Source: an uncultured delta proteobacterium
Lineage (GTDB): Bacteria; Myxococcota_A; UBA9160; SZUA-336
DNA length: 64,000 nt
Assembly: GCA_963704165.1 (NCBI GenBank)
Contig: CAVPHD010000004.1
Location: forward strand, 352,001-416,000
Reading direction: 5' to 3'
Under the pieces are notes generated by a model that made no database searches, was not told the origin of the DNA, and saw nothing but the letters and a program-made list of their open reading frames with translations. Every line of letters starts with the position of its first letter. The first letter of the stretch is position 1. Below, in pieces: positions 41,632 to 53,750 of the stretch. The translations under genes and the position numbers were made by a program.

Positions 41632-41685
41632 GTGGTCGCCGCCTCGCCCGAACCCGGGCTACGATGGTTCGGGGAGCCTGGCCGA

Positions 41686-43110
41686 ATGCGGGAACGGACC
41701 TTCCTGACACAAGAAATCGATCGAGGTCCGTCGGGGCCGAAGATCGGTGCGTTCTTCGACGTGGACGGCACCCTCCTCGCGGGCTTCTCGGCCATCGCGT
41801 TCTGGCGGGACCGGCTGCTCTCGGGACAGATGAGCCTGTCCGACGTTTCCGAGAACCTGCTCGCGTTCGTCGGTTTTCAGCGCGGGCGGGTGGGGTTCTC
41901 CGGCATGCTCGCCGCGTGGTCCGGAATCCTGCGCGGCACACCGGAGCAGGATCTCGTCGCGACGGGCGTGCGGCTCTTCGACTCCGAACTCGCCGCACTC
42001 GTGTATCCCGAATCGCGAGCGCTCGTCACCGCGCACCTGCGTCGGGGCCACACCGTGGCGATCGTGTCGGCAGCGACGCGCTACCAGGTCGAGCCGCTCG
42101 CGCGGGATCTCGGCATCGAGCACGTGCTCTGCACGCGGCTCGAGGTCGAGGACGGGAAGTTCACCGGGCGCTACATCTCGCCGCCGTGCTGGGGCGAGGG
42201 CAAGGCCAGCGCGGTGCGGGAGCTCGCGTCGCGCGACGGTGTAGACCTCGAGCAGAGCTACTTCTACAGCGACGCCGCCGAGGATCTGCCGCTCTTCGAG
42301 ATCGTCGGGCGGCCGCGGCCGACCAATCCCGACGCGAGGCTCGCGCGCATCGCCGAGCGGCGCACCTGGCCGGTGCGGAAGTTCAAGAGCCGCGGGCGTC
42401 CCGGAGTCGCGGAGGTCGTGCGCACGATCCTCGCCACGACGTCGGGCGCGACCGCGTTTCTGCTCGGACTGCCGCTCGCATTCGTGACCGGGCGGCCGAA
42501 GGAGCTCTTCGACTTCTCGCTCGCCGCCTGGGGCGATCTCGGCACCGCGCTCGCCGGAATCGAGCTCGCCGTCGAGGGCGAGGAGCACCTGTGGTCGGAC
42601 CGCCCGGCGGTCTTCATCTTCAACCACCAGAGCGCGATCGACGTGCTGCTGCTCTGCAAGCTCCTGCGCCGCGACTTCGTCGGCGTGGCGAAGAAGGAGC
42701 TGCGGCGCGTGCCGTTCCTCGGGTCGTTCGCACGCTTCTCGGGCACGGTCTTCATCGACCGCGCGAACTCCACGCTCGGCGATCCGCGCGCTCCAGCCCG
42801 CCGTCGAACGCGCTCCGCCGCGGCACCTCGCTCGCGATCGCGCCCGAGGGCACGCGCACGCCGACGCCGCGGCTCGCACCCGTTCAAGAAGGGCGCCTTC
42901 CACATGGCGATGCAGGCGCGCGTGCCGATCGTGCCGATCGTGATCAAGAACGCGCTCGACGCGCTGCCCAAGCACGGGCTCGTGATCCGCCCGGCCCGAA
43001 TCGAGGTCGTCGTGCATCCGCCGATCTCGACGCGCGGCTGGGTGCGCGAGGACATCGACCTGCACATCGCCGAGGTGCGCAGGCTGTACGAGGAGACGCT
43101 CTCGGACTGA
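41686..43110 (+). CDS. HAD-IB phosphatase / lysophospholipid acyltransferase fusion
   Basis: FFDVDGTL, YSDAAEDLP, NHQSAID, FKKGAF. The PEGTR motif is out of frame at about 42780-42880, consistent with compensating indels. Confidence 0.9.
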   Translation: MRERTFLTQEIDRGPSGPKIGAFFDVDGTLLAGFSAIAFWRDRLLSGQMSLSDVSENLLAFVGFQRGRVGFSGMLAAWSGILRGTPEQDLVATGVRLFDSELAALVYPESRALVTAHLRRGHTVAIVSAATRYQVEPLARDLGIEHVLCTRLEVEDGKFTGRYISPPCWGEGKASAVRELASRDGVDLEQSYFYSDAAEDLPLFEIVGRPRPTNPDARLARIAERRTWPVRKFKSRGRPGVAEVVRTILATTSGATAFLLGLPLAFVTGRPKELFDFSLAAWGDLGTALAGIELAVEGEEHLWSDRPAVFIFNHQSAIDVLLLCKLLRRDFVGVAKKELRRVPFLGSFARFSGTVFIDRANSTLGDPRAPARRRTRSAAAPRSRSRPRARARRRRGSHPFKKGAFHMAMQARVPIVPIVIKNALDALPKHGLVIRPARIEVVVHPPISTRGWVREDIDLHIAEVRRLYEETLSD

Positions 43111-43194: not shown

Positions 43195-44061
43195 ATGACG
43201 ACCCTCACGACCACGCCAGCCTCCTCGTCCAGACATCGGCTCGACGCCGCGCCGCCGCGCGTGGTGCTGCTGCCCGTCGTGACGACGCTGTGCGCGATTG
43301 GCGTAGTCCTCGGGTTCCTCGCCCGCGACGAGATGTACGTCACTCCCGATGCCGGACTCGGGTACGGACTCGGAGTCGCGGGACTGTGCGCGCTCTGCTC
43401 GCTCCTGCTCTACTCGCTGAGGAAGCGCGCGCGCTCTCTTCGGTCGTGGGGGGCTCTCCGGCACTGGTTCCACGTCCACATGATGCTCGGAGTGGTCGGT
43501 CCCACGCTGGTCCTCTTCCACGCCAACTTCGAAGTGCACTCGACGAACGCGGCGGTCGCTCTCGGAGCGATGGTGATCGTCGCCGCCAGTGGCTTCGTCG
43601 GGCGATTCGCCTACTCGCGCGTTCATCTGGGATTGTTCGGCCAGCGCGAGACCCTCCGCGACGTCAGCGCGCGAGCGGATGCGAGCCGCAGCGCGCTTCA
43701 CACCGCGCTGCGCGCCGTTCCGGAAGTCGAACTTTGCGTTCGCGAGTTCGAGCAGCGGGCGCTCGCTCGGTCCGGTGGGGTTCTGGCCGAGCTCTGGCGC
43801 GCGGTCGAGCTCGGCCGACAAACGCGTTCGATCCGACGGCGCGCGCGAGCGATGCTTCGCCAGGCTTCGCCGGCTGCTCTGCCGGCGGGTGCGAGTGCGG
43901 TCTCTCGCGGTCTCGACACCCACCTCGCACTGGTGCGGCGCGTGGCGGAGTTCGGTTTCTACGAGGGCGTTCTGTCCCTCTGGCACGCGCTGCACGTTCC
44001 GCTCGGCGTCGTGCTCTACATCGCGGCGGCGATTCATGTGATCGCCGTGCATCTCTACTGA
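43195..44061 (+). CDS. Inner-membrane His-rich protein of multiheme cytochrome cluster (cytochrome b/ferric-reductase-like)
   Basis: About five hydrophobic segments with TM His residues: WFHVHMMLG, LVLFHANF, WHALHVPL, IHVIAVHLY. Confidence 0.75.
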   Translation: MTTLTTTPASSSRHRLDAAPPRVVLLPVVTTLCAIGVVLGFLARDEMYVTPDAGLGYGLGVAGLCALCSLLLYSLRKRARSLRSWGALRHWFHVHMMLGVVGPTLVLFHANFEVHSTNAAVALGAMVIVAASGFVGRFAYSRVHLGLFGQRETLRDVSARADASRSALHTALRAVPEVELCVREFEQRALARSGGVLAELWRAVELGRQTRSIRRRARAMLRQASPAALPAGASAVSRGLDTHLALVRRVAEFGFYEGVLSLWHALHVPLGVVLYIAAAIHVIAVHLY

Positions 44062-45630
44062 GTGCGCGCGAACGCACTCGCGAGTCGGCTGGCACTCGTC
44101 GTCGGTCTCTTGGCTTCGAGCGCCGGCGCGCAGACGTTCGAGCGACTCGTGATGCCCGGAGTGCTCTCGAAGGCTCACGCGGACCTCGAGTCCGACTGTT
44201 CGAAGTGCCACACGCCCTTCAAGCGCGCGGAGCAGTCGGAGCTCTGCCTCGGCTGCCACGACCACCAAGCGGTCGCAGCCGACATTCGCGACAAGCGGGG
44301 ATTCCACGGGACGGCTCCCCCCGTCGAAGGCGCCGAGTGCAGATCGTGTCATCCGGAGCACAAGGGGCGCGACGCCGACATCATCGGTCTCGAGCGGAGC
44401 TCCTTCCCCCACGACTTCACCGACTACCCGTTGCGCGGTGCGCACGTGCGGGTCTCCTGCGAAGGATGTCACGACCCGGACAAGGCCTTCCGCGACGCAC
44501 GCGCGAGCTGTGCCGACTGCCACGCCGCGGCGGACGTGCACCGCGGGGAGCTCGGAAAGGACTGCGAAAGCTGTCACACGGAAGAGCGCTGGCGAGAGGC
44601 TCGATTCGACCACGGCAAGACGAAATTCCCTCTCGAAGGAAAGCACCGGGACGTCGCGTGCGCGCTTTGCCACGCGGGCGAGCGCTATTCGGGAATACCG
44701 ATGGACTGCGTCGGCTGTCATCGCGTGGATGACGTCCACCGGGGTCGATTCGGCGACGCGTGCGAGAGCTGTCATACGAGCGGCCAGTGGAAGACGCAGA
44801 ACTTCGACCACGCAGGAAAGACCCGGTTCCCACTCACCGGCAAGCATGCGAAGGTGCCTTGCGAGGGCTGTCATCCGGACGGCCTGGTCGATCAGAAGCT
44901 CGAGCTGAACTGCCTCTCGTGTCACCGCGGAGACGACGTCCACGACGGACGAAACGGCGCCGACTGCGAGCGATGCCACGGAACATCTGCCTGGAAGCCC
45001 GCGACGTTCGATCACGATCGGAACACGGAGTTTCCGCTTCACGGAGCCCATCGAGAAGTGAGCTGTGCGGCCTGTCACACGAAGCCGGTGCATCAACAGA
45101 AGCTGGGTTCGACCTGCATCGCCTGTCACGTCGCGGACGACGTGCACAAAGAGCAGCTCGGCGGCGACTGCGGCCGCTGTCACGGCGAGATCAGCTGGAA
45201 GGAGAAGGTCAGGTTCGATCACGACCTGGCGCGTTTTCCATTGCTCGGGCTGCACGCCGTCGTCGCATGCGAGGAGTGCCACTCGACCGGGGTCTATCGC
45301 GATACGGAGCAGAAGTGCGTCGCCTGCCACGCGCGGCAAGACGTGCACGAGGACCGGCTGGGTCCGAAGTGCGAGGTCTGCCACACCCCCAACGGCTGGA
45401 AGGTCTGGAAGTTCGACCACGCCACGCAGACGAAGTTCCCGCTCCGGGGCGGCCACTCTCAAGTGGCGTGTGAGACCTGCCACGTCGAGCCGGTCGCGAC
45501 CAAGCCCTCTCTCTCGACCGGATGCGACTCCTGTCACGGCGCGGAGGATCCCCACCGAGGTGCGTTCGGAAGGAACTGCGAGCGCTGTCACGGCGAGCAG
45601 TCGTGGAGAGACGTGAGGATCGCGCGCTGA
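44062..45630 (+). CDS. Periplasmic multiheme cytochrome c with 21 CxxCH motifs (seven triheme modules)
   Basis: Signal peptide ending AGA. 21 CxxCH counted by hand. Repeating FDH..T.FPL.G.H..V.C unit. Confidence 0.95.
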   Translation: MRANALASRLALVVGLLASSAGAQTFERLVMPGVLSKAHADLESDCSKCHTPFKRAEQSELCLGCHDHQAVAADIRDKRGFHGTAPPVEGAECRSCHPEHKGRDADIIGLERSSFPHDFTDYPLRGAHVRVSCEGCHDPDKAFRDARASCADCHAAADVHRGELGKDCESCHTEERWREARFDHGKTKFPLEGKHRDVACALCHAGERYSGIPMDCVGCHRVDDVHRGRFGDACESCHTSGQWKTQNFDHAGKTRFPLTGKHAKVPCEGCHPDGLVDQKLELNCLSCHRGDDVHDGRNGADCERCHGTSAWKPATFDHDRNTEFPLHGAHREVSCAACHTKPVHQQKLGSTCIACHVADDVHKEQLGGDCGRCHGEISWKEKVRFDHDLARFPLLGLHAVVACEECHSTGVYRDTEQKCVACHARQDVHEDRLGPKCEVCHTPNGWKVWKFDHATQTKFPLRGGHSQVACETCHVEPVATKPSLSTGCDSCHGAEDPHRGAFGRNCERCHGEQSWRDVRIAR

Positions 45631-45642
45631 CCTTCGCCTGAC

Positions 45643-47208
45643 TCAGAACAGGCCGAGCAATCCTCGGCTCTTCCCGGATTCGGTCTCGAGATAGCTTGCG
45701 ATCTCTGGATGGCCGGCCTGACGGGCCTGCGCTGCCGCGGTGAGGCCGATCTCGTTCTTTGCGCCGATGCGTACGTCTCGCCGGACCAGAAGCTCCACGA
45801 CCGCCTGATGTCCCGACGCTGCTGCAAACATCAGGGCCGTGTCGCGACGTTGCCCACGCGCATCGGGATCCGCATTCGCGTCGAGGAGGGCTTTGGCGGT
45901 CGCGAGCTGCCCGTTGCTCGCGGCGAGCATGAGCGCGGTGTTCCCCAGGCGGTTGGGTGCGTCGATCCCGGCACCGCGGTCGAGCAGGGCGCGCACGGTG
46001 ACGACATCGCCCGCGGCCGCAGCACGCGAGAGCACGGGCGTCCCATCCGCGCAGATCGTCGCGGTCGAGGCGCCGTGTTCGACGAGGGCGGCGGAGATCG
46101 CCGGGCGTTGACCGCGCAGCGCCAGACACAGCATCGACTCGCCAGAGTCGTCACGCCTCTCCGCTCGTGCTCCGAGAGCGAGCAGCGCGCGCGCGGCATC
46201 GGAGCTTCCAGAGCGTATCGCGTAGACGAGAGGCGGGATCCCGTCCGCGTCCGGATCGTCGGGACGGGCACCTGCGCGGACGAGAAGCTGGACGATCTCG
46301 GCCGAGCCGTGACTTGCGGCCCAGCCGAGCGGGGTTCGTCGCGCGCCATCGACGGCGTTCGGATTTGCGGAGTTCTCCAGCAATACGCTGACCGTGCTCA
46401 CGTGGCCTTCGCTCGAAGCGAGGGACAGCGCGTTCCGGCCATCTGCCGCGCGAGCGCGGAGGTCCGCGTGCGCGCGCACGAGCGCGGAGACGATCTCGGC
46501 GTGGCCGTTGCGTGCGGCTGCGAGCAGGGGGGTGTCACCTGCATCGTCGCGCACCTCGAGCGAGACCCTTCGCGCGATCAGACCGAGGGCGAGGTCGGTC
46601 TCGCCACGCCTCGAAGCGACGACGAGCGCGTCGGTTCCGTCGTGGGTCTCCGCCAACCAGGCCGCGGAATCCGCCGCACGCACCGACGCGGGAACGGGCT
46701 GCGGCGCCGCCCGCGTCTTTGCCCGCGCGCGTTCCTTGGCGGGTGCCGGGCTCCGAGCAGTTCTCGCCTGCGCGTCCTCGGGCTCCGCCTCGAGTTCGTC
46801 GAGCTTCGCGATCGCCCCCGCGTGTCCCTGATCCGCGGCCGCCCGAAACCAGCGCAACGCGGCCTTCCGATCGCGCTTCGTTCCCCAGCCGTCGCGATAC
46901 AGTCCAGCGACACAGAATTGTGACCGAGCATCGCCGCTCTCTGCCGAGGTGAGCCACCAATGGAACGCCTGCTCGGGGTTCTGCTTCACGCCGCGTCCCG
47001 AGCGATACAGCGAGCCGAGCTGGTATTGCGCGTCGGGATCTCCCTTCTCGGCGAGTACGCTCCAGAGAGTCGCCGCGCGTTCGAAGTCGCGCAGGCGAGC
47101 CGCCAGACGGGCGTCCTCCGCCGGGTCGGCGAGAGAGGTCGAGGCGGTCGAGAGCGCCACGGCCACCACCACGAGAAGCGCCCAGACGCTAGTGAAGTGG
47201 TGTGCCAC
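45643..47208 (-). CDS. Exported Sel1-repeat plus ankyrin-repeat protein
   Basis: Signal peptide. Sel1 repeats (AQYQLGSLYRSGRGV, WFRAAADQGH). Ankyrin repeats (GDTPLLAAARNGH, GNTALMLAASNG). GTG 47208 is the probable start. Confidence 0.9.
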   Translation of the reverse strand: MAHHFTSVWALLVVVAVALSTASTSLADPAEDARLAARLRDFERAATLWSVLAEKGDPDAQYQLGSLYRSGRGVKQNPEQAFHWWLTSAESGDARSQFCVAGLYRDGWGTKRDRKAALRWFRAAADQGHAGAIAKLDELEAEPEDAQARTARSPAPAKERARAKTRAAPQPVPASVRAADSAAWLAETHDGTDALVVASRRGETDLALGLIARRVSLEVRDDAGDTPLLAAARNGHAEIVSALVRAHADLRARAADGRNALSLASSEGHVSTVSVLLENSANPNAVDGARRTPLGWAASHGSAEIVQLLVRAGARPDDPDADGIPPLVYAIRSGSSDAARALLALGARAERRDDSGESMLCLALRGQRPAISAALVEHGASTATICADGTPVLSRAAAAGDVVTVRALLDRGAGIDAPNRLGNTALMLAASNGQLATAKALLDANADPDARGQRRDTALMFAAASGHQAVVELLVRRDVRIGAKNEIGLTAAAQARQAGHPEIASYLETESGKSRGLLGLF

Positions 47209-48511
47209 GTTTCGTCTCCGTCTCGATTCCGATCGCTTGCAGGAACGCGGTTGGCAGCACACCCCCCACGCAAACGATCACGGCGTCGCTCGCGACGTCT
47301 TCGATCCCGTCTCCGGTCTCAAGTACCGCGACGCCCGGGCGGATCTCGACGACCGTGGAGCCGAGCCGAACGAACAGCTGACCCGAATCGCGCGCAGCTT
47401 CGACACGGGCGCGGTTTGCCGGCTTCACGCGCGAGAACGCATCTCCCCGGTAAGAAAGCGTGACGCGAGTGCCGGGCTCGCTCGCGAGGCCCAGCGCCGC
47501 CTCGAGCGCGCTGTCTCCGCCGCCGACGACGAGTACGCTCTGACCGCGGTACTGCTCCGGATCGACGAGCCGGTAGACGACGTGCGGCGACTCCTCTCCG
47601 GGAACTCCGAGCTTCGCGGGCGTTCCGCGACGACCGATCGCGAGCACGAGCGTTCGCGCGAGGTGACTCGAACGCGAGGTCCTCACTTCGAAGCCGGTTT
47701 CCACTCGTCCGACGGCCTCGACGCGTTCCTGGTAACGGACGTCGAGGCCGGTCCCTCGAACGACATCGGTGAAGAGCTGGAGCAGCGACTCCTTGCTGAT
47801 CTCGCCCGTCGGGATCCGACCGTACAGAGGCAAGGTGCAGGCGGACGTCATGACGATCTTGCCTCGGGGATAGTGCGCGACCGTTCCACCCAGGCTCTCC
47901 TGCTCGATCGTCGCGAACCGAAGACCCTTCTCCTTCGCGGCGAGCGAGGCCGAGAGACCGGCGGGTCCGGCGCCGACGATCAAGACGTCGAGAACCTCGT
48001 CCGAGGTGCGCCCGTCGAGAGCTCCGACGACCGACTCGATCACCTGTCGGCCCTGCTCGATGGCATTCCGGATCAGGCCCATTCCTCCGAGCTCGCCGGC
48101 CACGAAGATACCCGGCACAGCGGTCTGGAAGTCGGGGCCGAGGCGCGGGATCTCGACTCCGCGACTCTCGGTTCCCAACACGAGCGTGATCGCGTCGAAC
48201 GGGCAGGCGGTCTGGCACGCGCCGTGACCGATGCAGTGCGTGGGGTTCACGAGCACGGCCTTTCCGCGCACGAGACCCAGCACGTTCTCCTCCGGGCAGG
48301 CTTTCACGCACGAGCCGCAGCCGAGACAGCGATTCGGATTGATCGAAGGGTGAAGCGACGCGGGCTCGGTGAGCTTCGATGCGATGGCTTCGCGAAGCGT
48401 CGCAGCGCTTCGGCGCTCCATTCTTCGCCTCGACGCGGAGTATCCGGCGAGCGCGAGCCCGAACGGGACGAGATAGAGCAGAACGAAGACGGAAGACGAC
48501 TCAGAAATCAT
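47189..48511 (-). CDS. Membrane-anchored ferredoxin (two Fe-S motifs) fused to a TrxB/YpdA-like FAD/NAD(P)H oxidoreductase
   Basis: N-terminal TM, CLGCGSCVKACP, CIGHGACQTACP, GAGPAG, GGGDSALEAA, SYRG. No redox CxxC. Confidence 0.9.
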   Translation of the reverse strand: MISESSSVFVLLYLVPFGLALAGYSASRRRMERRSAATLREAIASKLTEPASLHPSINPNRCLGCGSCVKACPEENVLGLVRGKAVLVNPTHCIGHGACQTACPFDAITLVLGTESRGVEIPRLGPDFQTAVPGIFVAGELGGMGLIRNAIEQGRQVIESVVGALDGRTSDEVLDVLIVGAGPAGLSASLAAKEKGLRFATIEQESLGGTVAHYPRGKIVMTSACTLPLYGRIPTGEISKESLLQLFTDVVRGTGLDVRYQERVEAVGRVETGFEVRTSRSSHLARTLVLAIGRRGTPAKLGVPGEESPHVVYRLVDPEQYRGQSVLVVGGGDSALEAALGLASEPGTRVTLSYRGDAFSRVKPANRARVEAARDSGQLFVRLGSTVVEIRPGVAVLETGDGIEDVASDAVIVCVGGVLPTAFLQAIGIETETKRGTPLH

Positions 48512-50675
48512 ATCGGAGCCCACCCGAGAAGGCGTAGATGAACTCATCGCCGCCGGTCGCGTCGAACGAGCGGCTCGTCCATTCCAATCCCGCATCTCCG
48601 AAGAGCGTCAGCTTCCAGATGCGGTACTCGACACCGAGGTACGGCCGGAGGGTGAGCGATCCGTTCCGCGCACGCGAAGCGGCCGCGGCCGCGGTCGGAT
48701 CCTCTGCGGTCTCGTCGGGATCGGGAATGAACTCGTCGCGCCCGCGGCGATTTCGCCAATCGAGGCGGATGCGCGGCAGGACGCGGAGCTTCGGCGTGAT
48801 CGGGTAGCGCTCGTTGATGATCAACGACCAGGTGTTCGAGACGTCGCCGTCGAAGTAGCGCACACCGATCGTGCCGACGTCACCGTTCGTGAAGAGATTC
48901 GAGACGACGAGCTGCGGGTAGTAGGAGAACTCCCAACCCGTGCTCTCCATCGCGTCGACGCCGCCAGATGCGGGAGTGTCGGACAGGTACGAAGCCGAGA
49001 CGTCGAGCGCGATCTGCACCCGATCGCTCAGCTGGTGAGATGCCCCGAGGCTCGTCAGCGCGGAGCGCGGCGTGCGATCCTTCGCGAGCTGCTTGATCTC
49101 GCTCCGTGAGTACAGCTCGTGCAGATCCTCGAGGCGATCGACGCCCTGGCCTTGAATCGCGTTCCAGCTGGTCAGGATCGGGCTGTTCCGATAGTCGACG
49201 AACAGGGTCGCGCTGGTCGTGGGACCGAGCTGCCAGTTCCCGCTCAGGAGGGCGGTGTTGAGATCGCCGAAGTAGAGGTCGTAGTCGACGTAGCTCGCCA
49301 CGAAGAGATCGTCGTCGGCATAGCGAAGCTCTCCGCCGATGCCGTTCCGGTCGAGCATTCCGTCGGCGTGCTGTCGAAGCGAGAAGATCTGCACATCGAC
49401 GAGCCCGCCAAGGTCTTCGGCGTCGAGGCTCAGGCCGTACAGGAATCGGCCCGTTTCGATCGAGTCGGAGTTCTGGATCTCGACCGGGGAGCCGCCGCGA
49501 ACCGTGACGCGCCACTGCTCGGCGAGCCGACGACTGAGGCGAACGCCGTCGAAGCGCGTCGTGACCCCGGCCGTGTTTCCCGGCTGCCGTCCGAACGTCG
49601 CGGAGTACGGTCCCGTGCGCTGCGCGACGTCGAGGAAGAGCGCGCTGACCCGCGTGTCGTTGTGGTCCATTCCTTCGGCGAAGTCGAAGCGGTACGACGC
49701 CGAGGCCAGGCCTCGCCACGCGAACTTGTCTCCGCGAGCGCGAGTCGAGACGCTGAGATCCGAGAACAGCGATGAATCGGTGAGGAGCGCGCCGGTTGCA
49801 TCGCTGTCCAGGGTTTCGTGCCGGTATTGCGTCGATGCGCTGCCGAAGAGCTCGAGCTCACTCGGGCGCGTCGCGGCCATCGTTCCGGTACCCGACCGCC
49901 CCGAGGGCTTCGCGCCTGCGGTCAGAAGCGCGTCCAGCCGCTGGCGGACTCGCGCGGATCCCTCGCCATCCGGATACCACTTCAGGTACTCCTCGTACTC
50001 GGCCTTCGCGTGTGCGAGCTGACCACGGCGCTCGCGCGCGACGCCGAGCAGCTCCTTCGCCTCGCGCGAATTCACGTGCTCGGGAAGAGTGACGATCTTC
50101 GTGAAGACACGGATCGCCTGGTCGAAATCGCCGGCCGTCATGGCGTTTCGCCCGGACGCCATGAGCTCGTGGCTGCGCAGGAGCGGGTCGCTGGATTCGG
50201 GTCGCGAGGCGGCGCCGCGACCCTCTCGAGCCCGCACCGAGACGACGAGGCTCCGGAAGTCTCCACCCTGCCTGACCTCGAAGCTGACGCCGCGAGAGAA
50301 GCGAAGGACCAGGTAGCGCCCGTCGGGTCGCCCGCCCTCGTAGCTGACGTCGAGAAGGGGAACCGGGGAGTCGGGCGGCGCGGAGAGGGTCTCGGTGCCG
50401 GCGAGCAAGGAGACGGTGCGCGGGGCCAGAGAGATCGGGTCGATCTGGATCTGCAGCGTTTCGCCGCTCGCCGCGGGGGCGTGGCGGAGATAGCGAACCG
50501 GCGTCATGAAGCGAACGACCACGTCGATCGTTCCGCCGTGCTCGCGCATCTCGATCGCCTCGAGGACGCGTTGCGGCGTCGGCGCCGCTCGCGCTCGCCC
50601 CGGCGCGAGGAGTGCCAGCAAGAGCCAGGCGAGCATCGGGACGATTGTGCCGGGCCGCCCCGGCGTCGGAATCAC
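48501..50675 (-). CDS. Putative outer-membrane beta-barrel (porin) with N-terminal AMIN-like and TPR regions
   Basis: Signal peptide, TPR (AKAEYEEYLKWYPDG), about 450 aa of amphipathic beta-strand pattern, C-terminal BAM-type signal GGLRYDF. Confidence 0.75.
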   Translation of the reverse strand: MIPTPGRPGTIVPMLAWLLLALLAPGRARAAPTPQRVLEAIEMREHGGTIDVVVRFMTPVRYLRHAPAASGETLQIQIDPISLAPRTVSLLAGTETLSAPPDSPVPLLDVSYEGGRPDGRYLVLRFSRGVSFEVRQGGDFRSLVVSVRAREGRGAASRPESSDPLLRSHELMASGRNAMTAGDFDQAIRVFTKIVTLPEHVNSREAKELLGVARERRGQLAHAKAEYEEYLKWYPDGEGSARVRQRLDALLTAGAKPSGRSGTGTMAATRPSELELFGSASTQYRHETLDSDATGALLTDSSLFSDLSVSTRARGDKFAWRGLASASYRFDFAEGMDHNDTRVSALFLDVAQRTGPYSATFGRQPGNTAGVTTRFDGVRLSRRLAEQWRVTVRGGSPVEIQNSDSIETGRFLYGLSLDAEDLGGLVDVQIFSLRQHADGMLDRNGIGGELRYADDDLFVASYVDYDLYFGDLNTALLSGNWQLGPTTSATLFVDYRNSPILTSWNAIQGQGVDRLEDLHELYSRSEIKQLAKDRTPRSALTSLGASHQLSDRVQIALDVSASYLSDTPASGGVDAMESTGWEFSYYPQLVVSNLFTNGDVGTIGVRYFDGDVSNTWSLIINERYPITPKLRVLPRIRLDWRNRRGRDEFIPDPDETAEDPTAAAAASRARNGSLTLRPYLGVEYRIWKLTLFGDAGLEWTSRSFDATGGDEFIYAFSGGLRYDF

Positions 50676-52303
50676 CAGTCACCTCTGGACGCGCGGTGTT
50701 CCCCACTTCGCGACTCCTGGATCCGGGTCAGGGAACTGTCGGTGTAGGTGTGGCAGCTTCCCGTGCAGTCGCGGAGCTCGCTGACCGTGTAGAGCACTCG
50801 AGGCGTATCGACCTTCTCGTGCTTGTCGGCTCTGAAGTCCGTGGCGTGGCAGCCCGCGCAGTCGGGCCGGTAGCTCGCGTTCCGCCAGGCATTCGCCTGC
50901 GTGTTGCCAATGTGACAATCGCTGCAGTCGCCCACCGAGCGGTGACCGACGGGGTAGTTCGGTGAGCTGTGGCTGAACGTGGAAGGCGTCCAACGCGTGG
51001 TGGAGTGGCAATCCACGCAATCGAGTGACGTCACGAAATGATTCGACGGCTTTCCTGTCGCGCTACTCCCGTTGTGACAGGTCCCGCAGTTCCCGGTGAC
51101 GCTGGCGTGGTCGAAGCGCGCGGGGAGCCAGGCCAGCGTCGAGTGGCAGTCCTCACAGGTGTTCGCGCTGGCGACGTGATTCGCCGACTTGCCCGTCGCG
51201 GTCGTGCCGTTGTGACAGGTGATGCAGTTCCCGGTGACGCTGGCGTGGTCGAAGCGCGCGGGGAGCCAGGCGTTGGTGGTGTGGCAGTCCTCGCAGGCAT
51301 TCGAGCTCTGGATGTGGTTCGAGTTCTTGCCGGTGGCGGTCGTGCCGTTGTGACAGGTGGAGCAGGCGCCGGTGACGCTGGCGTGGTCGAAGCGCGCGGG
51401 GAGCCAGGCGTTGGTGGTGTGGCAGTCCTCGCAGGCATTCGAGCTCTGGATGTGGTTCGAGTTCTTGCCGGTGGCGGTCGTGCCGTTGTGACAGGTGGAG
51501 CAGGCGCCGGTGACGCTGGCGTGGTCGAAGCGCGCGGGGAGCCAGGCGGTGGTGGTGTGGCAGTCCTCGCAGGCGTTCGAGCTCTGGATGTGGCGCGAGT
51601 TCTTGCCGGTGGCGGTCGTGCCGTTGTGACAGGTGGAGCAGGCGCCGGTGACGCTGGCGTGGTCGAAGCGCGCGGGGAGCCAGGCGGTGGTGGTGTGGCA
51701 GTCCTCGCAGGCGTTCGAGCTCTGGATGTGGCGCGAGTTCTTGCCGGTGGCGGTCGTGCCGTTGTGACAGGTGGAGCAGGCGCCGGTGACGCTGGCGTGG
51801 TCGAAGCGCGCGGGGAGCCAGGCGTTGGTGGTGTGGCACACATCGCAGTTGTTCGACGACGCCGGGTGATTCGCCGGCTTGCCCATGACGATGGTCCCGT
51901 TGTGGCAACTGGCGCAGCTGGCGGTCGCGTCGAGGTGATCAAATCGTGCGCCGCGCCAGGTCGCGACGGAGTGACATTCCTCGCAGGGTGCCGAGGTGCT
52001 GATGTGCCTCACCGGCTTGGCGGTCAGCGCTCGGGATCCCGCGCCTCCGTGGCACGCGGCGCACTTCGTCGGTGTTCCCTGGAACGCTCCCGCGATGTGG
52101 CACGCCTCGCAGGCGACGTCGGCGTGGGCTCCATTCAACGGAAAGCCGGTGCGCATGTGGTCGAACTCGAGCGGCGCCTCGGCCCTGGGTGCCGCCGCTG
52201 CCGAAAAGATCAGCGCCACCGAAACTCCGCCGATCGCGAGCCAGGTTCCGACTCGAGCTGCAGGTTCCAGATGGAGCAGGGGCGAACGGCTACCGCGCGG
52301 CAT
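50672..52303 (-). CDS. Multiheme cytochrome c with 19 CxxCH plus one CxxxCH and 46-aa diheme tandem repeats, probably extracellular
   Basis: Hand count of motifs. Thr/Ser/Asn-rich. Hydrophobic N-terminal signal. Start is uncertain (ORF open to 52408). Confidence 0.93.
   Translation of the reverse strand: MPRGSRSPLLHLEPAARVGTWLAIGGVSVALIFSAAAAPRAEAPLEFDHMRTGFPLNGAHADVACEACHIAGAFQGTPTKCAACHGGAGSRALTAKPVRHISTSAPCEECHSVATWRGARFDHLDATASCASCHNGTIVMGKPANHPASSNNCDVCHTTNAWLPARFDHASVTGACSTCHNGTTATGKNSRHIQSSNACEDCHTTTAWLPARFDHASVTGACSTCHNGTTATGKNSRHIQSSNACEDCHTTTAWLPARFDHASVTGACSTCHNGTTATGKNSNHIQSSNACEDCHTTNAWLPARFDHASVTGACSTCHNGTTATGKNSNHIQSSNACEDCHTTNAWLPARFDHASVTGNCITCHNGTTATGKSANHVASANTCEDCHSTLAWLPARFDHASVTGNCGTCHNGSSATGKPSNHFVTSLDCVDCHSTTRWTPSTFSHSSPNYPVGHRSVGDCSDCHIGNTQANAWRNASYRPDCAGCHATDFRADKHEKVDTPRVLYTVSELRDCTGSCHTYTDSSLTRIQESRSGEHRASRGDW
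51070..51836. repeat. 138-bp tandem repeat, six copies of the core and four near-identical full units
   Basis: tcgaagcgcgcggggagccagg recurs at 51111, 51249, 51387, 51525, 51663 and 51801, an exact 138-bp spacing. Confidence 0.97.
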
Positions 52304-52406
52304 CGCCTCAAGATCGACATCTGCGTACGCGCTGACTGTGAGCTGGATTACATCGCTGCGGCTCCGGCTCGCTCGCGGATGGTCGCGCGACGGGTACTCT
52401 AGGGCC

Positions 52407-53750
52407 ATGGGGGGTGTGGCCGACCGTCACCCGCGCGACCGCCTGCGCCGGGAGCTCGGACTTCGCGACGCGACGCTACTCTGTGTAGCTTCGGTGATCG
52501 GATCGGGGATCTTCCTGACGCCGGGTGCGATCGCGGAGCGGCTCCCGTACCCGGGTTTGATCCTTGCGGTCTGGGTCGCGGGCGGAATGCTCTCTCTCGC
52601 CGGGGCGCTCGCGAACGCGGAGCTCGGCGCGATGTACCCGCACGCGGGCGGCGACTACGTGTACCTGCGCGAGGCGTTCTCGGGCTTCGCGGGCTTCCTG
52701 ATGGGCTGGGTCTCGTTCTTCGCGATCTTCACGGGAACGGTCGCGACGCTCGCGGCCGGATTCGCCGAGGCGCTCGATCCGATGCTCGACCTCGGCGAGG
52801 GCGGCAAGCTCGGGGTCGCGCTCGCCGTCACCCTCGCCGCGAGCTGGCTCAACGTGATCGGCGTGCGAGACAGCGCGCGATTCAACAACGCGACGGCGCT
52901 GCTCAAGATCGGCGCGCTCGCCGCGCTGGTCCTGCTCGCGCCGTGCTCGAATGCCGGTGACGTCGCGAACCTGCGTCCGCTGATCTCGACGGCGGACGGC
53001 TTTCCGTTCGCGTCGTTCGGTCTCGCGCTCTCACCGGTCCTGTTCAGCTATCTCGGCTGGAACTCCGCGGTCTACGTCGCGAGCGAGATCCGCGACCCGC
53101 AGCGCAACATCCCGCGCTCGCTCTTTCTCGGGCTCGGGATCTGCATCGTGATCTACCTGCTCGTGAATGTGGTCTACCTGTACGCGATCCCGGCCACGGA
53201 GATGCGCGGCCTCGGCAACGCGGGCGAGGCGGCGGCCGACGCGCTCTTCGGTCCGGTGAGCGGGCGGATCCTCGCGTTCTTCGTGCTCGGATCGATTCTC
53301 GGCACGCTGAACGCGACGATCCTCGTCGGACCTCGGATCGCCTATGCCATGGCGCTCGACGAGCGCTTCTTCGCCCGCGTCGATCGCGTGCACGCGCTCT
53401 ACCAGACACCGCACGTGGCGATCTGGGTGCAGGCCGGCGTGGCGAGCGCGCTGCTGCTCGTGCTGCGGAGCTTCCCCAGCGTGCTCGACTTCACCACCTT
53501 CGCAATCGTGCTCGCGACGATCGCCGACACGCTCGCGCTCTACACACTTCGGCGTCGACGGCCGGAGCTGCCCCGTCCCTACCGAGTCTGGGGCTACCCG
53601 TGGGTTCCCGCCGCGTATCTGGTCGCCAACGCGCTCGTCGCGTTCGCGATGCTGCGCGGGAACCCGCTCGAGTCGCTGGCCTGCGTCTTCGTGATCGCGA
53701 GCGGCGTGCCGTTCTACGTGGCCTTCTCGCGACGCACGCGCAGGGCGTAG
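52407..53750 (+). CDS. APC-family amino acid permease
   Basis: VIGSGIFLTPG, AELGAMYPHAGGDYVYL, FSYLGWN, RPYRVWGYP, about 12 TM segments. Confidence 0.93.
   Translation: MGGVADRHPRDRLRRELGLRDATLLCVASVIGSGIFLTPGAIAERLPYPGLILAVWVAGGMLSLAGALANAELGAMYPHAGGDYVYLREAFSGFAGFLMGWVSFFAIFTGTVATLAAGFAEALDPMLDLGEGGKLGVALAVTLAASWLNVIGVRDSARFNNATALLKIGALAALVLLAPCSNAGDVANLRPLISTADGFPFASFGLALSPVLFSYLGWNSAVYVASEIRDPQRNIPRSLFLGLGICIVIYLLVNVVYLYAIPATEMRGLGNAGEAAADALFGPVSGRILAFFVLGSILGTLNATILVGPRIAYAMALDERFFARVDRVHALYQTPHVAIWVQAGVASALLLVLRSFPSVLDFTTFAIVLATIADTLALYTLRRRRPELPRPYRVWGYPWVPAAYLVANALVAFAMLRGNPLESLACVFVIASGVPFYVAFSRRTRRA

Follow-up and report, generated by a model that had tools for sequence, protein, structure and literature searches.

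A PCC3-type multihaem cytochrome gene from a Myxococcota genome, with four central dihaem units that probably arose by two recent in-register tandem duplications

Introduction

PCC3 is a type of porin-cytochrome cluster and a widespread predicted conduit for extracellular electron transfer. It is described as comprising a porin, an 'extracellular' cytochrome with many haems, a 'periplasmic' cytochrome with about 21 haems and an inner-membrane protein (He et al. 2017, PMC5566968). The latter has about 300 amino acids (aa) and five helices, with a WX3HX13H motif in each of the third and fifth helices and SGXXG in the fourth (PMC5566968). The extracellular cytochromes consist of many repeats, each with a haem site, at a residue-to-haem ratio of 26 to 30, and differ widely in haem number (PMC5566968). 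PCC3 haem numbers range from 10 to 35 in Gallionellaceae and from 10 to 57 in the Leptothrix group, and a Sideroxydans genome with two copies has 14 haems in one and 12 in the other (PCC3 literature including PMC5566968 and PMC9900912); published haem counts for the periplasmic cytochrome are 21, 24 and 27. The porin of Leptothrix cholodnii is drawn with 22 transmembrane regions in a supplementary figure, and the hosts listed are Alpha-, Beta- and Gammaproteobacteria (PMC5566968). The PCC3 family, its repeats and its variable haem count are already known. We analysed a stretch of 64,000 nucleotides (hereafter the window) from an uncultured delta proteobacterium placed in Myxococcota_A (assembly GCA_963704165.1, contig CAVPHD010000004.1, positions 352,001 to 416,000). 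It carries, at 50672..52408 on the minus strand, a gene for a variable multihaem cytochrome of PCC3 type, whose four central 138-bp units probably arose by two recent in-register tandem duplications.

The published PCC3 accounts, as far as consulted, note repeats, and they do so without DNA-identical units, a two-haem step or a contrast between interior and end units. Our literature search covered neither bioRxiv supplements nor the entries of Table S4 of He et al., both of which may bear on the matter; within that scope, we found for PCC3 neither DNA-identical units, nor a strict two-haem step or fixed ends with an interior that turns over, nor a near-constant partner cytochrome across such a wider set, nor conserved neighbours of the FAD (flavin adenine dinucleotide)/Fe-S and ankyrin/Sel1 kinds. 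A search on Myxococcota and porin-cytochrome returned no PCC3 in Myxococcota by title or abstract. Papers on the evolution of multihaem cytochromes (PMC12977616; bioRxiv 10.1101/2025.05.29.656830) treat, in their accessible parts, gene-level duplication and module grafting and not intragenic dihaem tandem duplication.

The dihaem array

Reading frames around the cytochrome gene were chosen by third-position G+C. From its first ATG the gene encodes 578 aa; a later methionine, at residue 36, is followed by a signal-peptide-like stretch. The protein contains 20 haem motifs, of which 19 are CxxCH and one is CxxxCH (CTGSCH), and 15 consecutive CxxCH motifs occupy residues 142 to 464 at an exact spacing of 23 aa. 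It holds 43 histidines and only 4 methionines, a content that fits bis-His ligation of the haems. Tandem Repeats Finder (TRF) detected an array of period 138 that spans 51069..51856 and comprises 5.7 copies (94% matches, 0 indels). Read in the RFDH register, the array consists of seven units of 138 nt or 46 aa (50981..51946, minus strand), each with two CxxCH motifs and two further histidines, one in FDH and one in R/N-H. The array is flanked by an N-terminal three-haem module (aa 81-154, FDHxxTGFPLxGxH..., 51947..52168, minus strand), which is recognised by the conserved columns of alignment A2 and is present in orthologues, and by a C-terminal module with two CxxCH and one CxGxCH that ends in GDW (50675..50980, minus strand; alignment A1, in which 7 sequences share 57 invariant columns).

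In coding order, units 2 and 3 (51671..51808 and 51533..51670; together 51533..51808, minus strand) are identical at 138/138 nt and form type A. Units 4 and 5 (51395..51532 and 51257..51394; together 51257..51532, minus strand) are likewise identical at 138/138 nt and form type B. The two types lie 4 nt apart, in the order AABB, and differ at codon 26 (CGC/AAC, R/N, 2 nt), codon 32 (AAC/AAT, silent) and codon 41 (ACC/AAC, T/N). At an offset of 138 the array repeats itself exactly over 229 nt and over 180 nt, which is far beyond chance. The remaining units are more distant: unit 6 differs from units 2-5 by 26-27 nt, and units 1 and 7 by 41-53 nt. A reading of the DNA made earlier from its letters alone (the sequence-only reading) had described 138-bp units of 46 aa with two CxxCH motifs and two extra histidines, one haem per 23 aa, two units with NSRH..TTT and AAC followed by two with NSNH..TTN and AAT, and more diverged flanking units. 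All of this was borne out, the unit description for all seven units.

The order of the units bears on their history. AABB needs at least two single-unit events, because a single duplication of an AB pair yields ABAB; the two events may have been one-unit duplications, unequal exchanges or conversions. The timing was gauged against a genome of the same genus (G007; codes beginning with G and L denote related genomes and loci, G000 being the window's own genome). Within the identical pairs 0/138 positions differ and between A and B 4/138, compared with 27-38/138 for the end units orthologous to those of G007, so both the pairs and the A/B split are much younger than the separation from G007. The AABB order and these distances support the two separate recent duplications that the sequence-only reading had proposed.

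Unit number and turnover among relatives

To place the array in its family, species-representative genomes were searched with the C-terminal module (alignment A1). The search gave 511 relatives, from which the best 80 loci were kept. The gene was counted as complete in 55 of these 80, meaning that its open frame does not reach the end of the contig. These 55 complete homologues contain between 6 and 49 CxxCH motifs, and the number is odd in 52 of them. Odd CxxCH counts together with a constant CxGxCH indicate that haems come and go in steps of two. A similar picture was obtained from the best 120 protein matches: 56 have both end modules as judged by pattern (the other 64 were left out), and 54 of the 56 have an odd CxxCH count, mostly 13 or 15. 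The partner cytochrome, the counterpart of the 21-haem protein encoded in the window at 44062..45630, is far less variable, with 21 CxxCH motifs in 22 loci, 24 in 19 and 18 in 1 (n = 42, after three rows that cross-hit the variable gene and one incomplete row were dropped).

Closer relatives likewise differ in unit number, with 7 units in G000, 6 in G007, 7 in L028, 9 in G006, 11 in G012 and about 10 in G005 (TRF). In G022 two contigs, each ending inside the array, together hold at least 15 units, and in G003 and G013 the contig stops within it. The outcome that would have told against the sequence-only reading, a fixed number of units in orthologues with diverged DNA, was thus not found, the counts being 6, 7, 9 and 11. 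Recent identity is not confined to the window: units 3 and 4 of G007 differ at 2/138 nt, and near-identical adjacent pairs occur independently in G007, G022, G013, L028, L029, L056, L071 and L067. Among the complete homologues, adjacent units reach at least 95% DNA identity in 7/55, a lower bound since identical repeats break short-read contigs, and at least 90% in 10/55. The arrays of G006 and G012 are made of diverged units, 65-89% identical to each other. The contig terminates inside the variable cytochrome gene in 25 of the 80 loci, so haem counts taken from short-read metagenome-assembled genomes (MAGs) are often underestimates.

A maximum-likelihood tree was built from 75 units of 10 gene pieces in 9 genomes (138 columns); G005, G033, G039 and units outside the pattern were excluded, and many forks of the tree are not resolved. 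The last units of all nine genomes form one clade (support 95/86), and the first units of G000, G007 and G006 cluster together (80/95). Interior units group instead by genome, as in G000 units 2-5 (99/86), G007 units 3-4 (100/99), G022b units 3-8 (100/100) and G013 units 1-4 (97/98). The tree thus points to ends that were inherited vertically and to an interior that was repeatedly expanded or homogenised within lineages. Dihaem units are thus gained, lost or homogenised separately in each lineage.

The cluster itself is patchy in distribution, since matches were found in 11 genomes among 40 related genomes plus the window's own, and in 5 of 11 other genomes of the same genus, one of these matches being weak. 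Of the six same-genus genomes without a match, five are 92-96% complete and one is 74% complete. A search of metagenome contigs with units 6-7 and the C-terminal module turned up 40 loci but no contig of the same species; the top match is 76% identical and starts within the gene.

Assignment to the PCC3 type

The window offers a counterpart for each of the four PCC3 components. The cytochrome gene adjoins a gene for a predicted 22-strand barrel (48501..50675, minus strand). The cytochrome itself has 20 motifs in 543-578 aa, or 27-29 aa per haem (27 from Met36), and seven 46-aa repeats. A 21-haem cytochrome and a dihaem-b-like membrane protein are encoded 5 kb away: the first, at 44062..45630 on the plus strand, is a protein of 522 aa with 21 CxxCH motifs in c7-type repeats, about six repeats of ~67 aa with three haems each, and corresponds to the 'periplasmic' cytochrome; the second, at 43195..44061 on the plus strand, is a protein of 288 aa with two WX3HX13H motifs (W91 and W263) and the SGXXG motif SGFVG, and corresponds to the inner-membrane protein. 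SGFVG falls in the hydrophobic segment 117-140. A crude hydropathy scan of this protein gave four clear segments, with the W91 segment, the would-be helix 3, under threshold, and Pfam returned a weak cytochrome b561 hint (E 0.051).

Homology to a named holder was also found. He et al. name Uliginosibacterium gangwonense as a PCC3 holder (PMC5566968), and in strain DSM 18521 (locus L069) homologues of the four genes lie in a row; L069 was equated with the authors' cluster at the level of the organism and not by their gene identifiers. Identity between the window and L069 is 37% for the membrane protein (E 6e-51), 44% for the 21/24-haem cytochrome (E 9e-129), 30% for the barrel (E 3e-53) and 58% for the C-terminal module of the variable cytochrome. 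Neighbouring genes were sought around the best 80 of the 511 relatives by tblastn in flanks of 7 kb or less, and homologues were found near 74/80 loci for the barrel and 45/80 for the membrane protein; the 21-haem cytochrome was matched at 77/80, a count that includes cross-hits to the variable cytochrome.

By gene content, then, the 50672..52408 cytochrome belongs to a porin-cytochrome cluster of PCC3 type. The gene order in supplementary figure 1 of He et al. (periplasmic cytochrome, extracellular cytochrome, porin; PMC5566968) makes its product the putative 'extracellular' PCC3 cytochrome, and by analogy with the published PCC3 model it would lie at the cell surface, in a conduit for extracellular electron transfer. 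The host differs from those of He et al. 2017 in being a Myxococcota MAG, and the locus extends PCC3 to that phylum. As a separate observation, the homologues P0062, P0033 and P0017 carry peptidoglycan-binding SPOR domains (PF05036) ahead of the cytochrome part, an arrangement not readily expected if the variable cytochrome were purely extracellular.

Alternative explanations

Several points weigh against a PCC3-type cytochrome whose central units arose by two recent duplications. PCC3 is called 'functionally unverified' in the accessible literature. The gene order of the window departs from that of most relatives (for example L069, L036 and L035), which are collinear in the order membrane protein, 21/24-haem cytochrome, variable cytochrome, barrel: here 43195..45630 (plus strand) converges on 45643..52408 (minus strand), and this division into two convergent units, shared by G003 of the same genus, also sets the locus apart from the PCC3 of He et al. 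2017. The AlphaFold2 (AF2) model of the cytochrome, built on a 27-row alignment, has a mean pLDDT (predicted local distance difference test) of 49.9 and a pTM (predicted template modelling score) of 0.21. A Foldseek search of this poor model against the PDB gave nothing at E <= 0.001. The model is unusable, which leaves linear haem stacking and length per unit hypothetical. Two other such points, an orthologue with the same unit number and a contig from public reads, belong to the alternatives that follow.

In the first of these, the seven units are of long standing and evolved in concert, two gene conversions having copied a unit over its neighbour with no haems added. L028, which is 69% identical in the C-terminal module, likewise has 7 units (19 CxxCH), with its own near-identical units 3-5 and a best adjacent identity of 0.986, and conversion at constant copy number could give the same picture. 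The grouping of interior units by genome in all relatives is also what homogenisation predicts. However, unit number varies within the genus (6, 7, 9, about 10) and widely in the family, always in two-haem steps, which leaves no doubt that units are both gained and lost. Moreover, unequal crossing-over homogenises units and alters their number alike, which means that conversion and duplication are not cleanly separable. We consider conversion without any gain of haems unlikely for the window.

The second alternative is that the assembler mis-counted identical 138-bp units, their true number being smaller or larger. The sole public run that we found (7% of sampled words) yielded one 168-nt contig inside the repeat, identical to the window at 51320..51487; arrays of this kind trouble assemblers, as the contigs that end in the gene at 25/80 loci indicate, and frameshifts occur in the related arrays of G005 and L089. 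Against this, the window contig extends across the array, which it flanks by over 350 kb in one direction and by 12 kb in the other, and keeps the frame intact, and the G000 assembly, with 12 contigs, 3.87 Mb and an internal full-length 16S gene, suggests a long-read assembly that spans the array. The usual short-read error would be a collapse and not an ordered AABB, and near-identical adjacent units are also found on contigs of 0.67 to 5 Mb in relatives (L028, L067). We consider a mis-assembled array improbable.

The sequence-only reading had further suggested that haem number and reach are tunable by recombination, like a contingency locus. Tunability holds on the evolutionary timescale, since unit number differs among relatives in two-haem steps. 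Frequent switching of copy number within a population, exploited to vary the reach of the wire, would draw on the exact 229- and 180-nt direct repeats at offset 138 as recombination substrate, on the two independent events within a short time in the window array and on the independent near-identical pairs of the relatives listed above, but it is very improbable, as adjacent units are at least 95% identical in only 7/55 complete homologues (a lower bound), which argues that most arrays of the family are old and stable, as those of G006 and G012 (65-89% between units) are, and as we know of no mechanism that ties unit number to a selectable switch.

Proposed mechanism and implications

Slippage and unequal exchange are favoured by long exact direct repeats. 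We propose that 138-bp units recombine unequally, or slip during replication, and that each such event would add or remove one unit of 46 aa and two haems. One-unit steps of this kind would keep the gene in frame and the haems 23 aa apart, and would leave the docking ends untouched. The interior of the array would act as a spacer wire whose length sets the electron reach from the barrel, and the conserved end modules would dock to partners. The C-terminal module may be the likelier contact with the barrel, because its coding sequence immediately precedes the barrel gene and no other part of the protein is as conserved. In a straight chain the two extra units could contribute as much as about 4 nm, a value scaled, at about 1 nm per haem, from the ten-haem MtrA, whose length is quoted as roughly 100 Å (PMC5566968).

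The locus indicates a likely origin of the PCC3 differences in haem number, namely gain of 138-bp dihaem units in register between conserved ends. It also belongs to a natural length series from 6 to 49 CxxCH motifs, the near-isogenic steps of which could be used to relate the length of a haem chain to the distance and rate of electron transfer. A bolder proposal is that the outward wire of PCC3 is length-tunable, with fixed docking ends and interior dihaem cassettes that turn over by recombination fast enough to produce reach variants within a population. We hold this to be unlikely; if it were true, cells could adjust their wire to how far away a mineral or partner surface lies, and the window would record the process under way, two duplications having occurred with zero mutations since.

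Family placement of the cytochrome

In Pfam the cytochrome matches Cytochrome_C7 (PF14522), with 94.5 bits against a gathering threshold of 24.8 over 11 stretches. Paired_CXXCH_1 (PF09699) scores 29.7 bits against a threshold of 20.6, and further matches are Cytochrom_c3_2 (83 bits), Cytochrom_CIII and the MtrC/MtrF domain II/IV family. The best NCBIfam model is that of the DmsE/MtrA decahaem family (TIGR03508); membership of this family was ruled out, the score being 84.4 bits against a cut-off of 192.2 and the motifs numbering 20, not ten. Searched as a single protein, the cytochrome has one sequence match in the PDB, MtrA (6r2q_A, E 4.6e-6). Its family profile finds MtrC (6e-10) and 6r2q_A (8e-10), and also reaches UndA and Hmc.

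Three kinds of described protein offer a comparison beyond PCC3. MtrA/DmsE of MtrCAB (PDB 6R2Q, chain A) and MtrC share with the window cytochrome a bis-His-type chain of CxxCH motifs encoded beside an outer-membrane barrel, but the window protein has 20 haem motifs and MtrA 10, and the window barrel, unlike that of MtrCAB, has 22 predicted strands and a TPR domain at its N terminus; it matches no solved barrel in sequence. The Geobacter c7-domain polymers (GSU1996 type; TIGR04257, 'nanowire_3heme') are likewise single chains of repeated small haem modules with a supposed wire role. TIGR04257 scores 35.1 bits on the window cytochrome, under its cut-off of 40, and the GSU1996 type has three haems in about 70 aa whereas the unit described here has two in 46 aa; c7-like three-haem repeats belong rather to the 21-haem neighbour at 44062..45630. 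Filament chains of the OmcS/OmcE/OmcZ type were absent from the PDB sequence matches of the cytochrome and of its profile. The label 'nanowire' used in the sequence-only reading is too loose, since the gene product is one multihaem chain belonging to a porin-cytochrome cluster and not a polymerising filament cytochrome.

At the level of the DNA, the closest analogue is of another kind. The streptococcal alpha C protein is a surface protein with DNA-identical, in-frame tandem repeats of variable copy number. It resembles the window cytochrome in its long identical in-frame repeats, in its surface location (predicted for the cytochrome) and in a reading frame that is kept when the copy number changes, and differs in that the window repeats carry redox cofactors and not epitopes.

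Neighbouring genes and further observations

The barrel gene begins with a GTG that overlaps the TGA stop of the cytochrome gene. Its product of 724 aa would comprise an N-terminal beta domain, TPR helices and the 22-strand barrel, as judged by AF2 and Foldseek. The AF2 model (30-row alignment) has a mean pLDDT of 85.1 and places 22 strands between residues 274 and 723; its Foldseek matches are porins and ushers. The C-terminal phenylalanine is invariant across 30 sequences, and no sequence match to solved barrels was found.

Two more genes share an operon with the barrel: one for a pyridine-nucleotide-disulphide oxidoreductase with FAD and 2x[4Fe-4S] (47189..48595, minus strand; Pfam Pyr_redox_3, 142 bits, and Fer4 families), and one for an ankyrin/Sel1 repeat protein (45643..47262, minus strand; Pfam Ank_2, 166 bits, and Sel1, 60 bits). 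Homologues occur near 43/80 related loci for the oxidoreductase and near 29/80 for the ankyrin/Sel1 protein. Both lie outside the published four-gene definition of PCC3, and none of the terms FAD, ferredoxin and ankyrin occurs in the accessible portions of He et al. 2017 (PMC5566968). Both products may be accessory components of the cluster that have so far been overlooked, for example for electron entry or exit on the cytoplasmic side.

Frameshifts break the arrays of L017/L022 (G005) and L089, whose assemblies consist of few or large contigs. The TRF period in G005 is 139, and L089 changes frame several times; these arrays contain either long-read indel errors or decaying genes. In L010 (G006), one haem motif of unit 5 reads CDDCQ and not CxxCH, which reflects either the loss of one proximal histidine or a sequencing error. 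Just upstream of the membrane protein gene, at 41632..43110 on the plus strand, the window encodes a HAD-hydrolase/acyltransferase fusion of 492 aa.

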